A stretch of DNA of 64,000 nucleotides from Escherichia coli (GTDB lineage: Bacteria; Pseudomonadota; Gammaproteobacteria; Enterobacterales; Enterobacteriaceae): assembly GCF_016026235.1 (NCBI RefSeq), contig NZ_CP065613.1; one strand, written 5' to 3'. A program made the position numbers and the translations under genes. Shown here piece by piece: positions 2,923-58,193 of this stretch (position 1 is its first letter; every line of letters starts with the position of its first letter). The notes under the pieces were generated by a model. That model ran no database searches and was not told the origin of the DNA. It saw only the letters and a program-made list of their open reading frames with translations.

Positions 2923-4179
2923 ATGGATTTCTTTCGTTTTTTGATGAGCGATGTACTTTCCGAACCCGCAGTGCTGGTCGGTTTAATCGCCCTGATTGGC
3001 CTGATTGCACAGAAAAAACCGGTAACCGAATGCATTAAAGGTACCGTCAAGACCATTATGGGGTTTGTGATTTTAGGCGCAGGGGCGGGTTTAGTTGTGT
3101 CGTCACTGGGTGACTTCGCAAACATTTTCCAGCATGCCTTTGGTATTCAGGGTGTAGTGCCGAACAATGAAGCCATTGTTTCCGTAGCGCAGAAAAGCTT
3201 CGGGAAAGAAATGGCGATGATTATGTTCTTTGCGATGGTTATCAACATTATGATTGCCCGTTTCACACCGTGGAAATTTATCTTCCTGACCGGTCATCAC
3301 ACGTTGTTTATGTCGATGATGGTAGCGGTAATTCTGGCAACAGCAGGCATGACCGGCATTACGCTTATAGCCGTTGGCTCTTTGGTTGTTGGCGTGGCAA
3401 TGGTCTTTTTCCCGGCTATTGCGCATCCGTACATGAAGAAAGTGACCGGTTCTGATGACGTTGCCATCGGCCACTTCTCAACATTATCTTATGTATTGGC
3501 CGGTTTCATCGGCAGCAAGTTTGGTAATAAAGAGCACTCGACTGAAGACATGAATGTGCCGAAAAGTCTGCTGTTCTTGCGCGACACGCCGGTTGCTATC
3601 TCTTTTACCATGAGCATAATTTTCCTGGTGACGTGCCTGTTTGCGGGTGCAGATGCGGTGAAAGAGCTTAGCGGTGGTAAAAACTGGTTCATGTTCTCTA
3701 TCATGCAATCCATTACCTTCGCAGCTGGCGTGTACATCATTCTGCAGGGTGTGCGCATGGTGATTGCGGAGATTGTCCCGGCATTCAAAGGTATTTCAGA
3801 CAAGCTGGTTCCGAATGCCAGACCTGCTCTCGATTGCCCGGTCGTCTTCCCTTACGCACCTAACGCTGTACTGGTTGGTTTCCTGAGTAGCTTTGCTGCA
3901 GGTTTAATCGGTATGTTCACGTTGTATCTGCTGAACATGATCGTGATTATTCCTGGTGTGGTGCCGCACTTCTTCGTAGGTGCAGCTGCAGGGGTATTCG
4001 GTAATGCAACGGGTGGACGTCGTGGTGCGATTTTGGGTGCCTTCGCTCAAGGCTTGCTTATTACCTTCCTGCCAGTATTCTTATTGCCGGTGCTGGGTGA
4101 TATTGGTTTTGCTAACACCACCTTCAGTGATGCTGACTTTGGCGCACTGGGTATTTTGTTAGGGATTATCGTTCGCTAA
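2923..4179 (+). CDS. PTS enzyme IIC permease, ascorbate (UlaA/SgaT) family
   Basis: 418 aa polytopic membrane protein with UlaA-like segments (IKGTVKTIMGF, VAEIVPAFKGISDKLVPNA). Confidence 0.85.
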   Translation: MDFFRFLMSDVLSEPAVLVGLIALIGLIAQKKPVTECIKGTVKTIMGFVILGAGAGLVVSSLGDFANIFQHAFGIQGVVPNNEAIVSVAQKSFGKEMAMIMFFAMVINIMIARFTPWKFIFLTGHHTLFMSMMVAVILATAGMTGITLIAVGSLVVGVAMVFFPAIAHPYMKKVTGSDDVAIGHFSTLSYVLAGFIGSKFGNKEHSTEDMNVPKSLLFLRDTPVAISFTMSIIFLVTCLFAGADAVKELSGGKNWFMFSIMQSITFAAGVYIILQGVRMVIAEIVPAFKGISDKLVPNARPALDCPVVFPYAPNAVLVGFLSSFAAGLIGMFTLYLLNMIVIIPGVVPHFFVGAAAGVFGNATGGRRGAILGAFAQGLLITFLPVFLLPVLGDIGFANTTFSDADFGALGILLGIIVR

Positions 4180-4245: not shown

Positions 4246-4418
4246 CTCCATTTTTCTTTCTTCCAGTCAGGACTGCATCCGATTAATCGTAAGGCAGTAT
4301 GACTTTCTGTGAGACAGATGCTGGCCAACGTGGGATATTTAACGCGGGTTAACATCGTTGTCAGAGCCGCATGGGTGAGCTGTTGCTACACCCCGGTATT
4401 TCCACCACGGAGGCCAGC

Positions 4419-5546
4419 ATGAACAACAATAACACATTGTACGTCGGGTTAGATGTTCACAAAGAATCGATTACTGTCGCTTATGCTATCAATTCAGAAC
4501 CTGTTGAACTGATGGGTAAAATTGGCACATCACCTACTGATATTCAGAATCTTTGTAAACGTCTCAGGTCAAAGTCATCGCAGGTCAGTATCGTTTATGA
4601 AGCGGGGCCCTGTGGTTATGGACTTTATCGTCGGCTGGTGAAATCCGGTTTTGACTGCATGGTCTGCGCCCCCTCACTTATCCCGAAAAAACCGGGGGAG
4701 CGGGTTAAAACCGATCGCCGTGATGCCATCAGACTTGTGCGTTCACTGCGTGCAGGAGATCTTTCTGCTGTCTACGTACCCGGCATTGAAGATGAGGCAT
4801 TCCGGGATTTGGCCCGGGCATGGGCATCTGCCCGCGATGATTTACGGCATGCAAGGCAACGTCTGAAATCGTTTCTTCTGGTTCATGGGGTCCATTATGT
4901 CGGGCGAGCAGATTGGGGCCCTGCACACCGACGCTGGCTCAGCAAATACTCATTCGAAAGTCCCTGGCGACAATTAGCTTTTGACGAACACCGTCGTACA
5001 ATAGAAGACCGGCAGGCACAATGTGAACGGCTGGAATCCGCCCTGAAGGAGGCCGTTACCGAATGGAGGCTGTATCCGGTAGTAGAGGCGCTGCAAGCCA
5101 TGCGAGGGATTCAGTTTATTACTGCGGTTGGATTAATTTCTGAACTGGGTGATCTGACCCGTTTTGAACATCCACGACAACTGATGTCATGGTTTGGTAT
5201 CACGCCATCAGAATATTCATCGGGTGGAAGCAGACATCAGGGCAGCATTACCAAAGCCGGAAACAGCTATGCCAGAAAGCTATTGGTCGAGGCAGCGTGG
5301 AGTTACCGTCATCCGGCACGCATCAGTCCGGCAATACAAAAAAGGCAGGAAAATTTACCCCGCCCCGTCATTGACAGAGCATGGGATGCTCAACTCAGGC
5401 TTTGTAAGAGGTATCGAAAACTTCAGGCCAAAGGAAAGAATGTCAATATTACAATTGTTGCTGTTGCACGTGAGCTGGCGGGTTTTATCTGGGATATGGG
5501 CCGAATAGCAATATCTGTCGCACAACAACCACAATGTCACAAATAA
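4419..5546 (+). CDS. IS110-family transposase/recombinase (375 aa from the SD-preceded ATG; the ORF track starts at 4371)
   Basis: N-terminal LYVGLDVHKESI RuvC-like DEDD domain and C-terminal Transposase_20-type region (GITPSEYSSGGSRHQGSITKAGNSYARKLL); GGAGG 7 nt upstream of the ATG at 4419. Confidence 0.8.
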   Translation: MNNNNTLYVGLDVHKESITVAYAINSEPVELMGKIGTSPTDIQNLCKRLRSKSSQVSIVYEAGPCGYGLYRRLVKSGFDCMVCAPSLIPKKPGERVKTDRRDAIRLVRSLRAGDLSAVYVPGIEDEAFRDLARAWASARDDLRHARQRLKSFLLVHGVHYVGRADWGPAHRRWLSKYSFESPWRQLAFDEHRRTIEDRQAQCERLESALKEAVTEWRLYPVVEALQAMRGIQFITAVGLISELGDLTRFEHPRQLMSWFGITPSEYSSGGSRHQGSITKAGNSYARKLLVEAAWSYRHPARISPAIQKRQENLPRPVIDRAWDAQLRLCKRYRKLQAKGKNVNITIVAVARELAGFIWDMGRIAISVAQQPQCHK

Positions 5547-5565
5547 AAAATGAGAATAACCAGTT

Positions 5566-5748
5566 CCCTGAAGGCGACGTAGCCCGGTACAAGAGTAACC
5601 CACGTTAGCGCTTGGCGACGGCGGAACAAAGCTGATTCGCGACGTAAGAAAGTGGCAGGCTCATATGACGGACCTCTGTAATGCGGTATCCAACCCGCGA
5701 ATATCAGCGTGATTCACCGTCGGATTTACTGCTACGTCGCCCTCAGGG
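5566..5748 (+). other. Long-range inverted repeat enclosing 147 bp downstream of the IS110-family recombinase (candidate structured RNA)
   Basis: CCCTGAAGGCGACGTAGC (5566-5583) is complementary at 17 of 18 positions to GCTACGTCGCCCTCAGGG (5731-5748). Confidence 0.4.
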
Positions 5749-6134
5749 AATTAAACCTAAAAAGAAAATCGTCAAAATTAGAGATTCCGGTTTGACACGG
5801 AAAGTCATATCAGCGCTGACGGGTGACCCTAAGCCCTGATAATCATAGCTTAAGGTGAGGATTTATGAGGGATTAATTAGGAAAAGTAATAATTAATTTG
5901 TTGTCAGTCGGCGATGTTTGTTAGGCCAATATTTCAAAAATAATCCAGCTTGTCGTCAATAATTGCGATAAAGAGATAAATTAAAGTTAAATAATTAAAT
6001 CATTAAAAAATTACGCCATTAAAATGCGAGGCGTCTTCCGGATTAGAATCGATAAAACAGAATGGGTTAAAGAGAGCGATATAATAGCGGCGGGTGCTTG
6101 AGGCTGTCTGTCTCAGGCATTAGCTGAACGGCAG

Positions 6135-6195
6135 ATAGAGAAAAGCCCCGAGTGATATTTTACCATCAACCCGAGGCCCCCTATATGCTGAACAC
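6135..6195 (-). ncRNA. sokC: sokC antisense RNA of the hokC/mokC locus (position inferred)
   Basis: In hok/sok loci the Sok RNA is antisense to the mok start region; TTGACC (reverse complement of 6223-6228) is a candidate -35. Coordinates are approximate. Confidence 0.3.
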
Positions 6196-6394
6196 ATGTA
6201 GAGTGCCTCTTACTGACCGTAAGGTCAAGGAGAAGAGAGCAATGAAGCAGCATAAGGCGATGATTGTCGCCCTGATCGTCATCTGTATCACCGCCGTAGT
6301 GGCGGCGCTGGTAACGAGAAAAGACCTCTGTGAGGTTCACATCCGAACTGGCCAGACGGAGGTTGCTGTTTTCACGGCTTACGAATCCGAGTAA
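6185..6394 (+). CDS. mokC: MokC, overlapping regulatory reading frame of hokC
   Basis: 69-codon frame MLNTCRVPLTDRKVKEKRA... that contains hokC in the same frame. Confidence 0.65.
   Translation: MLNTCRVPLTDRKVKEKRAMKQHKAMIVALIVICITAVVAALVTRKDLCEVHIRTGQTEVAVFTAYESE
6242..6394 (+). CDS. hokC: HokC (Gef) small membrane toxin
   Basis: 50 aa MKQHKAMIVALIVICITAVVAALVTRKDLCEVHIRTGQTEVAVFTAYESE, matching the Hok family. Confidence 0.85.
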   Translation: MKQHKAMIVALIVICITAVVAALVTRKDLCEVHIRTGQTEVAVFTAYESE

Positions 6395-6417
6395 GAGCAA
6401 CGGCGGGGAGTGATCCC

Positions 6418-7711
6418 CTGAGGGATCCCCAGAAAATTTAGTAAACCATTATCATATTGGTATACCGTTGCTGTAGAACTTTCAGCCCTGCGTCAAGTGA
6501 CAGTGTGTTTAGTATGAGTGGAGAATGTCGAATCACATTCTCCGCCAGTTTTAATAACGAGATGACTCGCCTGTGCTTCACTGTATTTGCCTGATATTTA
6601 TGATGTATCCCTTTGTTTTCCAGGCTGAAACCGCTTAACCACATAATGATACTGGCTAATGTTGCGATCAGACTCAATACCGTGACCCGCCCGGATGAAT
6701 GACTGGCACCAAACCGTAGTCCAAATCCCCAGCGAGGATTTTTTTCATCCCTGAAATTTTGCTCAATTTGCATTCTACGGCTGTATAATTTCATTACCTG
6801 TTTTGGCGAGAACTCAGTACTGTTTGTGAAAATAAACCATGGTGATTTCCCGGCAGTACGAGCTTTAGCCGTCACCGATGGTCTGGTTGCTCTTTCCTTC
6901 GAGCGTTTAAATCTACGACCTTTAGGCTTACTTTTATAAAGATAAAAATGCCCTTCATGTTGTGCATTTTTATCTCGACCCAGCAGGCCTTCACCTAAAT
7001 AAATTGCTGTCGTTGATGCTTTTGTGCCTGAGTCCGACACCTTTTCCCAGCCATTACCAACATTGTAATAATGATTGCCCAGTACCCGGCAAATATAGGT
7101 CCAGCCACGGGAGCGGAGCTGTTGGAACCATCGCCCCTGAAAACCGGCATCTGTAATAACAATGACATCAGTCCCGGGGGAAAAGCACTCAGCAAGCGAT
7201 TCCAGAAAACGCTCATGTACATCTGCATTCGCTGTCTGTGATGATGGAACGACACAACTCATCAACGGTAAAGAACGCCCGTCACATGCCAGGCTTGCCC
7301 GCAAAAGCTGAAAACGAGAGGCATGATAAGCACTCCAGTCAATGAGTATCACAACACGAGACATTCCCCGCGTAATCTTTTGGGTAATTCGCTGAAAAAT
7401 GGTGGAAACCTCATTTTGCAAATGTCGATTCCCCAACAGTCGATCCACCCGCTTTATTTTGTTTTTAACTGATGCCGTACCGGTTAAATGACGCCCGATA
7501 CTGGTAAGTGTGAGGGAAGCGCCATTTATTACAGCATTAGTTGCGTCAATCAGTGATTTTTGACGGTAAAGATGCAAAGGGGCCAGTATATTGTTAAGGA
7601 AATTTTGGCATAATGAACGTGCAGGCATAGTGGTGATCTCCTTGAAATTGTTAGCACAATCAATTAGATCACATCTCACTATGCCTGTCTTGTTTTCTGG
7701 GGATTCCTCAG
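6418..7711 (-). mobile_element. IS10-like (IS4-family) insertion sequence, intact copy, about 1.29 kb
   Basis: Terminal inverted repeats CTGAGGGATCCCCAGAAAA (left) and CTGAGGAATCCCCAGAAAA (right, reverse complement), resembling IS10 ends; flanked by direct repeat GAGTGATCC(C) at 6408-6417 and 7712-7721. Confidence 0.8.
6438..7628 (-). CDS. IS4-family (IS10-group) transposase, 396 aa
   Basis: Shares IS10 transposase motifs (KIKRVDRLLGNRHL, DWSA, DAGF, YSRRMQIEQNFRDEK, QANTVKHRRV); true start is MPARSL at 7628, the ORF-track start at 7727 lies outside the element. Confidence 0.85.
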   Translation of the reverse strand: MPARSLCQNFLNNILAPLHLYRQKSLIDATNAVINGASLTLTSIGRHLTGTASVKNKIKRVDRLLGNRHLQNEVSTIFQRITQKITRGMSRVVILIDWSAYHASRFQLLRASLACDGRSLPLMSCVVPSSQTANADVHERFLESLAECFSPGTDVIVITDAGFQGRWFQQLRSRGWTYICRVLGNHYYNVGNGWEKVSDSGTKASTTAIYLGEGLLGRDKNAQHEGHFYLYKSKPKGRRFKRSKERATRPSVTAKARTAGKSPWFIFTNSTEFSPKQVMKLYSRRMQIEQNFRDEKNPRWGFGLRFGASHSSGRVTVLSLIATLASIIMWLSGFSLENKGIHHKYQANTVKHRRVISLLKLAENVIRHSPLILNTLSLDAGLKVLQQRYTNMIMVY

Positions 7712-7760
7712 GAGTGATCCCCGCCACTTTACAGGTGCTCGCATATCTTCAACGCACCCT

Positions 7761-7794
7761 ATTTTTACCCAGGCCTGCCCACGGGCAGGCTTTT
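7761..7794. terminator. Bidirectional hairpin terminator between dnaJ and the hokC side
   Basis: GCCTGCCCacgGGCAGGC hairpin with TTTT on the plus strand and an A/T run on the minus strand. Confidence 0.4.
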
Positions 7795-42934: not shown

Positions 42935-43186
42935 TGGAGCACCTCAAAAACACCATCATACACTAAATCAGTAAGTTGGCAGCATCACCCTCGTTATTAA
43001 AACTGGCGGAGAATGTGATTCGACATTCTCCACTCATACTAAACACACTGTCACTTGACGCAGGGCTGAAAGTTCTACAGCAACGGTATACCAATATGAT
43101 AATGGTTTACTAAATTTTCTGGGGATCCCTCAGGAGCAGTCCCCCACTCCGGCTTAACACGACAATCGCCTTTCAGCGAAACACAA

Positions 43187-58106: not shown

Positions 58107-58193
58107 GCGAAGGTGGCGGAATTGGTAGACGCGCTAGCTTCAGGTGTTAGTGTCCTTACGGACGTGGGGGTTCAAGTCCCCCCCCTCGCACCA
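58107..58193 (+). tRNA. tRNA-Leu (anticodon CAG)
   Basis: 87-nt GCGAAGGTGGCGGAATTGGTAGACGCGCTAGCTTCAGGTG...TCGCACCA with CAG anticodon loop and encoded CCA. Confidence 0.93.

Follow-up and report, generated by a model that had tools for sequence, protein, structure and literature searches.

Insertion of ISEc60 into the 3' hairpin of hokC in Escherichia coli, one base from the site of IS186 in K-12

The hokC locus and the element inserted in its 3' hairpin

The window analyzed here, a stretch of 64,000 nucleotides from Escherichia coli (contig NZ_CP065613.1, assembly GCF_016026235.1), contains a hokC toxin locus in which a copy of the insertion sequence (IS) ISEc60 lies just downstream of the toxin gene. 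The hokC gene (6242-6394, + strand) encodes 50 amino acids and ends with a TAA stop codon at 6392-6394, and the mokC reading frame (6185-6394, + strand; 69 amino acids) lies in frame upstream of hokC and overlaps it, which is the layout of a hok/sok type I toxin-antitoxin system. Both frames are intact and their products are 100% identical to the K-12 counterparts; the mokC translation is also the same in strain 120899. The antisense RNA gene sokC was placed at 6135-6193 on the - strand by homology to K-12 b4413 through a gap-free alignment, and, in agreement, the Rfam model RF01794 ('sok') matched positions 6092-6244 with 119.5 bits (gathering score, 59). The NCBIfam models of the Hok family scored HokC under their curated cut-off, despite its sequence being identical to that of K-12 HokC. 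Upstream, a putative -10 box of the hokC promoter (TATAAT, 6080-6085, + strand) was recognized by inspection in a region that aligns to K-12 gap-free, and its position predicts an mRNA start at about 6089-6090. The 5' 'tac' element GGGTGCTTGAGG follows at 6092-6103 (+ strand), where it is predicted to pair with the fold-back inhibition (fbi) element near the 3' end of the message.

The inserted element starts with CTGAGGGATCCCC at position 6418, 23 bp 3' of the hokC stop and inside a GC-rich hairpin, and terminates with GGGGATTCCTCAG at 7711. The left portion of the split hairpin, GGCGGGGAGTGATCCC, occupies 6402-6417 (+ strand) and includes the first copy of a 10-bp duplication, GAGTGATCCC, at 6408-6417. 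The second copy is found on the other side of the element at 7712-7721, within a segment (7712-7725, + strand) that also carries the right hairpin arm, CCCCGCC, at 7719-7725. Joined again, the two flanks rebuild the hairpin GGCGGGGA-GTGA-TCCCCGCC, and deletion in silico of the element and one copy of the repeat yielded GGCGGGGAGTGATCCCCGCC, which is exactly the uninterrupted site of strain 120899. A first-pass annotation of this DNA had described hokC and mokC as intact, with an IS10-like element beginning at 6418, 23 bp past the stop and within the hairpin, and direct reading of the sequence confirmed that anatomy. The motif GGGG-AGTGAT-CCCC of this hairpin is the sole GGGG(N6)CCCC within the window. 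With its site sequence, GGGGAGTGATCCCC, it is a perfect member of the target class used by IS186, which is a matter of common behavior and not evidence that the element belongs to IS186. The first base of the element is C, and the left junction (6405-6418) thereby rebuilds a complete GGGGAGTGATCCCC motif, which could favor repeat insertions at the same place.

The element is 1294 bp long (6418-7711, - strand), with inverted-repeat ends CTGAGGGATCCCCAGAAAA and CTGAGGAATCCCCAGAAAA that match at 18 of 19 positions. Over the whole query it is 99.9% identical to a copy in E. coli FDAARGOS_943 annotated as 'IS4-like element ISEc60 family transposase', and many further annotated ISEc60 copies showed 99-100% identity; the FDAARGOS_943 chromosome, NZ_CP065615.1, matches the element in 36 places. 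Its transposase gene (6438-7628, - strand), antisense to hokC, encodes 396 amino acids (WP_001111632.1). This product matched the NCBIfam model NF033591, 'IS4 family transposase', with 360 bits against a cut-off of 152, and the entry of the identical protein lists Pfam DDE_Tnp_1. The transposase shares 52% identity with that of ISSfl1 and, along 93% of its length, 36% with transposases of the IS10 type (ISVsa5/IS10A), whereas only a 22-residue motif could be aligned with InsL of IS186 (E = 0.008). The element also lacks the CATAAGCGCTAACTTAAGGGTTG ends of IS186/IS421. Judged by its sequence, the element is thus ISEc60, an IS10-type member of the IS4 family, and an IS186 variant is excluded. 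The earlier description of it as IS10-like stands in the sense of kinship: like IS10 (Tn10), ISEc60 has a DDE transposase of the IS4 family, and its ends presumably resemble those of IS10 (CTGAG.GATCCCC). IS10 makes 9-bp duplications at NGCTNAGCN. ISEc60, with a 10-bp duplication at targets made of a G-run and a C-run and a transposase only 36% identical, is not IS10 proper.

The bounds of the element and the length of its duplication were set from 12 intact copies at other loci, 10 of which are flanked by 10-bp repeats and the remaining 2 by 11-bp repeats. An alternative model with an 8-bp duplication and the ends CCTGAGG...CCTCAGG was rejected. A copy near the ibsE gene, described below, has T instead of C before CTGAGG, so the base at that position belongs to the target, not to the element; the 10-bp duplication is preferred because the ibsE site then needs no mutated end.

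The same hairpin in K-12 and across E. coli genomes

In MG1655 the gene order is dnaJ, IS186A, hokC. The junctions of IS186A in K-12 read GGCGGGGAGTGATCC against CATAAGCGC on one side and GCGCTTATG against GGAGTGATCCCCGCC on the other (in other extents, TAAGAGCAACGGCGGGGAGTGATCC against CATAAGCGC and GCGCTTATG against GGAGTGATCCCCGCCACTTTAC), placing the element 22 bp past the hokC stop, in the same hairpin and with the duplication GGAGTGATCC. The first-pass annotation had stated that K-12 carries IS186 at essentially this place, and the comparison bears this out. Both strains keep an intact ORF (open reading frame), cut off from its fbi element and terminator. The two insertions differ in the element itself, ISEc60 having IS10-type ends and transposase, in the distance from the stop (23 versus 22 bp), and in the duplication, whose window is shifted by 1 bp, leaving 9 of 10 bases in overlap.

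This near coincidence of hairpin and duplication, with 9 of 10 duplicated bases shared, is what might suggest that the two insertions are not independent, with ISEc60 either being an IS186 variant or else tracing back to, or having taken the place of, the IS186 copy in a K-12-like ancestor. The ends of the two elements are different, however (CTGAGGGATCCCC here, CATAAGCGCTAAC in IS186), their transposases are unrelated beyond the one 22-residue motif, that of ISEc60 being 36% identical to IS10-type enzymes instead, the duplication is displaced by 1 bp, and no IS186 remnant is present. We regard this reading as already refuted by the sequences compared, with a probability close to nil. The first-pass annotation had proposed an independent insertion, an idea it tied to a K-12 junction within about 20-30 bp downstream of hokC and to an element other than an IS186 variant; with a junction at 22 bp, a distinct element and a shifted duplication, that proposal holds. 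Its phrase 'a different IS family' is too strong: both elements are filed in the IS4 family, even if their transposases barely align.

Occupancy of the hok hairpins was counted in 5,426 complete E. coli RefSeq genomes, using for hokC a 400-bp query that spans the ORF and its 3' region. The hokC hairpin, with its N6 spacer, was uninterrupted in 3,815 of 5,425 genomes, leaving about 1,610 in which the 400-bp stretch is interrupted. IS186 was found at the site in 1,593 genomes, 672 with the K-12 orientation and 921 with the opposite one. These numbers come from junctions with the dnaJ side, which is specific to the chromosome; counts made at the hokC side (819 and 936) were rejected, since their sum exceeds the roughly 1,610 interrupted genomes and junctions of plasmid hok genes with IS186 match that query too. 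The two orientations indicate at least two IS186 events at hokC, in addition to the ISEc60 event. At most 17 genomes are left for anything but IS186 at this motif, and these include the single RefSeq genome with ISEc60 (1 of 5,426; one GenBank assembly carries it as well) and at least one assembly artefact. The latter concerns MLI104K2 (NZ_CP116925.1), considered as a third type of insertion at hokC and rejected as an IS186 copy degraded into poly-G/C assembly junk: its hokC-dnaJ gap contains about 700 bp of poly-G/poly-C after a recognizable IS186 end, annotated as 'hypothetical protein', and this stretch looks like an assembly artefact.

At hokE, where K-12 carries IS186B, the hairpin GGGGAGTAATCCCC also has an N6 spacer and was uninterrupted in 2,898 of 5,413 genomes, a count in which not all interruptions fall at the hairpin, some genomes differing further downstream. 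The hokB hairpin, GGGGATTTTCCCC, has an N5 spacer and was uninterrupted in 5,390 of 5,415 genomes, being interrupted in less than 0.5%. On a plasmid hok gene, IS186 was found within the equivalent hairpin GGCGGGG-N6-CCCCGCC.

Target choice and the explanation of the shared site

In a mutation-accumulation study, IS186 insertions were confined almost entirely to GGGG(N6/N7)CCCC and occurred in either orientation; the K-12 genome has only 19 N6 sites, some of which were struck many times (PMC5009759). An IS186 target hotspot at the lon promoter was described by SaiSree et al. 2001, as cited in bioRxiv 10.1101/527788. The hairpin of hokC matches the N6 form perfectly and is occupied in both orientations, as PMC5009759 reports for other sites. 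What differs here is that sites of this class are also used by a second element, whose transposase is only a very distant relative of the IS186 enzyme. We consider it highly probable that ISEc60 inserted independently at a hotspot defined by this motif in the hokC hairpin, and that it shares the position with IS186 through target preference. ISEc60, present in some 36 copies in the lineage, would have transposed into the GC-clamped hairpin 3' of hokC, and both elements would be drawn to its rare GGGG...CCCC motif. Given about 36 copies and the scarcity of suitable sites, it is unsurprising to find the hokC hairpin occupied. Two further IS186 motifs of the canonical N7 type, GGGGTTCAAGTCCCC, are present in the window at 58167 and 58288; both are unoccupied, and from their sequence they look like tRNA T-arms.

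A different account of the shared position is adaptive inactivation, in which silencing of hok/sok benefits the host and selection, not target choice, brings insertions to the same place. At least three independent insertions at hokC, carried by about 29% of genomes, and the fact that several hok loci have been struck fit this account. The K-12 hok loci have been described as IS-inactivated and non-functional (PMC7232551, in its citation of Pedersen and Gerdes 1999), and a survey that found recurrent insertions adjoining several hok homologs in E. coli and K. pneumoniae placed hok/sok homologs near insertion hotspots and proposed adaptive disruption (bioRxiv 10.1101/527788). Selection alone, however, predicts varied positions and IS types, whereas a single motif, occupied by IS186, accounts for 1,593 of the roughly 1,610 genomes with an interruption and leaves at most 17 for all other cases across the ORF and 3' region. 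The hokB hairpin with its non-canonical N5 spacer is interrupted in less than 0.5% of genomes, and this difference between N5 and N6 hairpins is predicted by target specificity but not by a general selection against hok loci. Moreover, mutation-accumulation lines show repeated IS186 insertion at the same motif (PMC5009759). We therefore judge the adaptive account unlikely. The possibly selected inactivation mentioned in the first-pass annotation is not needed and found no specific support, nearly all interruptions being IS186 at one motif; its alternative, a hotspot created by the hairpin, is favored by the evidence and is explained by the GGGG(N6)CCCC sequence.

To describe the target preference of ISEc60 itself, we compared 32 distinct flanks of ISEc60 copies from the window, from RefSeq chromosomes and plasmids, and from two GenBank assemblies located by an exact match to the transposase. 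Of these 32, 30 had G at -11 and 30 at -10, while 24 had it at -9 and 22 at -8; positions -7 to -4 were mainly A or T; and C occupied -3 in 25 flanks, -2 in 22 and -1 in 31. The resulting target consensus is approximately G|GGGAWWTCCC|C, which differs from the IS186 motif in a shorter, A/T-rich core and in a fixed 10-bp duplication. Related elements from Kosakonia, Dryocola, Pluralibacter, 'Candidatus Erwinia dacicola' and an E. coli plasmid contributed 13 flanks, with the same G-run 6-8 nt from the end. When species-representative genomes were scanned for the IS end, 13 loci were obtained; most lie at the end of a contig, and they served as one-sided flanks only. Two loci of the scan were set aside, one in Maribacter as a probable chance match and one a Pragia element whose flank has no G-run. 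No description of this preference was found in the literature searched, in which just two papers mention ISEc60 by name.

Many of the sites of ISEc60 and its relatives are terminator-like hairpins, and ISEc60 lies within the hokB hairpin of GCA_031665585.1 and the hokE hairpin of strain RMDEC332. In the chromosomes of RMDEC364 and CFSAN029787, a copy is found about 27 bp past ibsE, a type I toxin gene, in a hairpin with a G-run and a C-run and with the duplication GAGAAATCCT. A plasmid hairpin, GGCGGGGAAAATCCCCGCC, near antirestriction and yubG genes carries ISEc60 in both orientations on different E. coli plasmids, which indicates that this hairpin was struck independently by the element.

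Such sites raise the idea that the transposases recognize a structure, such as an extruded hairpin or cruciform, a stalled fork or a terminator, and not the GGGG and CCCC bases. That many ISEc60 and related sites are terminator-like palindromes with A-runs before or T-runs after them, and that two barely alignable transposases use the same sites, would agree with this. Several ISEc60 sites, among them GGGGAACTCGCC and GGGGTCAAAGCC, are nevertheless poor palindromes that keep both the G-run and the C-run, only 7 of 59 published IS186 sites depart from the GGGG/CCCC flanks, and then by 1-2 bases (PMC5009759), and the hokB hairpin, an equally good stem, is rarely struck by IS186. Recognition of structure instead of sequence thus seems very unlikely.

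On balance, we lean towards the reading that ISEc60-type elements have a strict preference for GGGG, an A/T-rich core and CCCC, with a 10-bp duplication, that has converged with the preference of IS186. The conserved 3' hairpins of hokB, hokC, hokE and ibsE, together with intrinsic terminators, would then be shared traps, and the 'inactivation' of hok genes would be largely a by-product of transposase specificity and not an adaptation. Several points weigh against the hotspot explanation. The ISEc60 preference is drawn from about 16 distinct sites ranked by search tools, a small and non-random sample; the hokC core measures 6 bp, compared with 4-5 bp at many ISEc60 sites, and is thus not an ideal target; and the high occupancy of hokC and hokE could also reflect insertions that are tolerated or favored, with selection as a possible contributor.

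Insertions just 3' of hok genes, the IS186 motif and the closeness of hok/sok homologs to insertion hotspots are published already, so the general phenomenon is known, the event is fairly ordinary and the advance is small. What appears to be new is ISEc60 as a second element at the same site, with its own target preference, along with the N5/N6 controls that favor a mechanistic reading. Like the hotspot survey (bioRxiv 10.1101/527788), our analysis finds recurrent insertions beside hok homologs; where the survey proposed adaptive disruption, our data, backed by those controls, suggest that the conserved GGGG...CCCC hairpin is responsible. This offers a concrete, testable reason for the presence of IS elements beside chromosomal hok loci, namely that the conserved 3' hairpin carries a rare motif sought by at least two transposases, and it tempers adaptive readings of 'toxin-antitoxin disruption hotspots'. 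The ISEc60 preference could also help to predict landing sites.

Predicted effect on the hokC RNA, other ISEc60 copies and the upstream region

Beyond the element lie the displaced fbi element CTTCAACGCACCC (7747-7759, + strand), predicted to pair with 6092-6103 in the uninterrupted allele, and the displaced hokC terminator hairpin with its T-run (7771-7794, + strand), the last hairpin in the predicted fold of the intact mRNA. The insertion has put an additional 1,304 bp between the ORF and these two elements, and the locus lacks a contiguous hok mRNA with tac/fbi pairing and a terminator of its own. In the minimum-energy fold of the uninterrupted mRNA (about 400 nt), the 5' sequence GGGUGCUUGAGG pairs with CUUCAACGCACCC near the 3' end (z = -6.2), and the same fold contains an 8-bp hairpin and the terminal terminator hairpin. 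This agrees with the closed form, made by tac/fbi pairing, that has been described for hok mRNAs (PMC9841398). When the IS-fused transcript was folded, tac was predicted to pair locally instead of with fbi.

From these predictions we infer an effect on RNA and toxicity. With fbi and the terminator moved 1.3 kb away, hokC transcripts would be unable to close into the stable 5'-3' fold; they would read on into the IS, take the open form and be cleared through SokC. The delayed-killing behavior would end while the toxin gene survives, as reported for K-12. There, IS186 is believed to break up the fbi sequence and to impair normal processing, and the gef (hokC) mRNA is still made and antisense-regulated and is believed to end inside IS186 (PMC3562002). 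By analogy, the insertion probably abolishes normal hok mRNA control in this strain. A terminator-like hairpin inside ISEc60 (6518-6553, + strand), picked up by a consensus scan, is a candidate end for hokC read-through, and the transcript might end there. This part of the argument is limited by its basis: the RNA folds were predicted, and the proposed end of the transcript within the IS is a consensus match only.

The window contains a second ISEc60 copy at 41892-43134, in the terminator-like hairpin GCCGGAG...CTCCGGC and with the duplication GGGACTGCTC; in this copy, IS positions 145-965 are replaced by an IS1-like sequence at about 42217-42990. Elsewhere, tandem ISEc60 dimers with an identical 10-bp spacer, GGTAAATCCC, were found at three unrelated loci: hokB of GCA_031665585.1, hokE of RMDEC332, and the plasmid pCFSAN029787_01. 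The hokB dimer as a whole is flanked by its own 10-bp duplication, GGAAAATCCC, and the flank of the dimer on pCFSAN029787_01 is itself GGTAAATCCC, suggesting an origin of the dimer on the plasmid, where a second insertion entered the regenerated target, followed by movement of the pair as a unit.

Upstream of hokC, the window carries an IS110-family element annotated as ISSso6 (about 4289-5811), with its transposase at 4419-5546 on the + strand. The element lies about 155 bp from where nhaA would start, and FDAARGOS_943 has nhaA-nhaR to its left. The homology of the window to FDAARGOS_943 stops at 4289, and a UlaA/SgaT-like ORF of 418 amino acids (2923-4179) is found there instead, which suggests a rearrangement at the end of the IS110 element.

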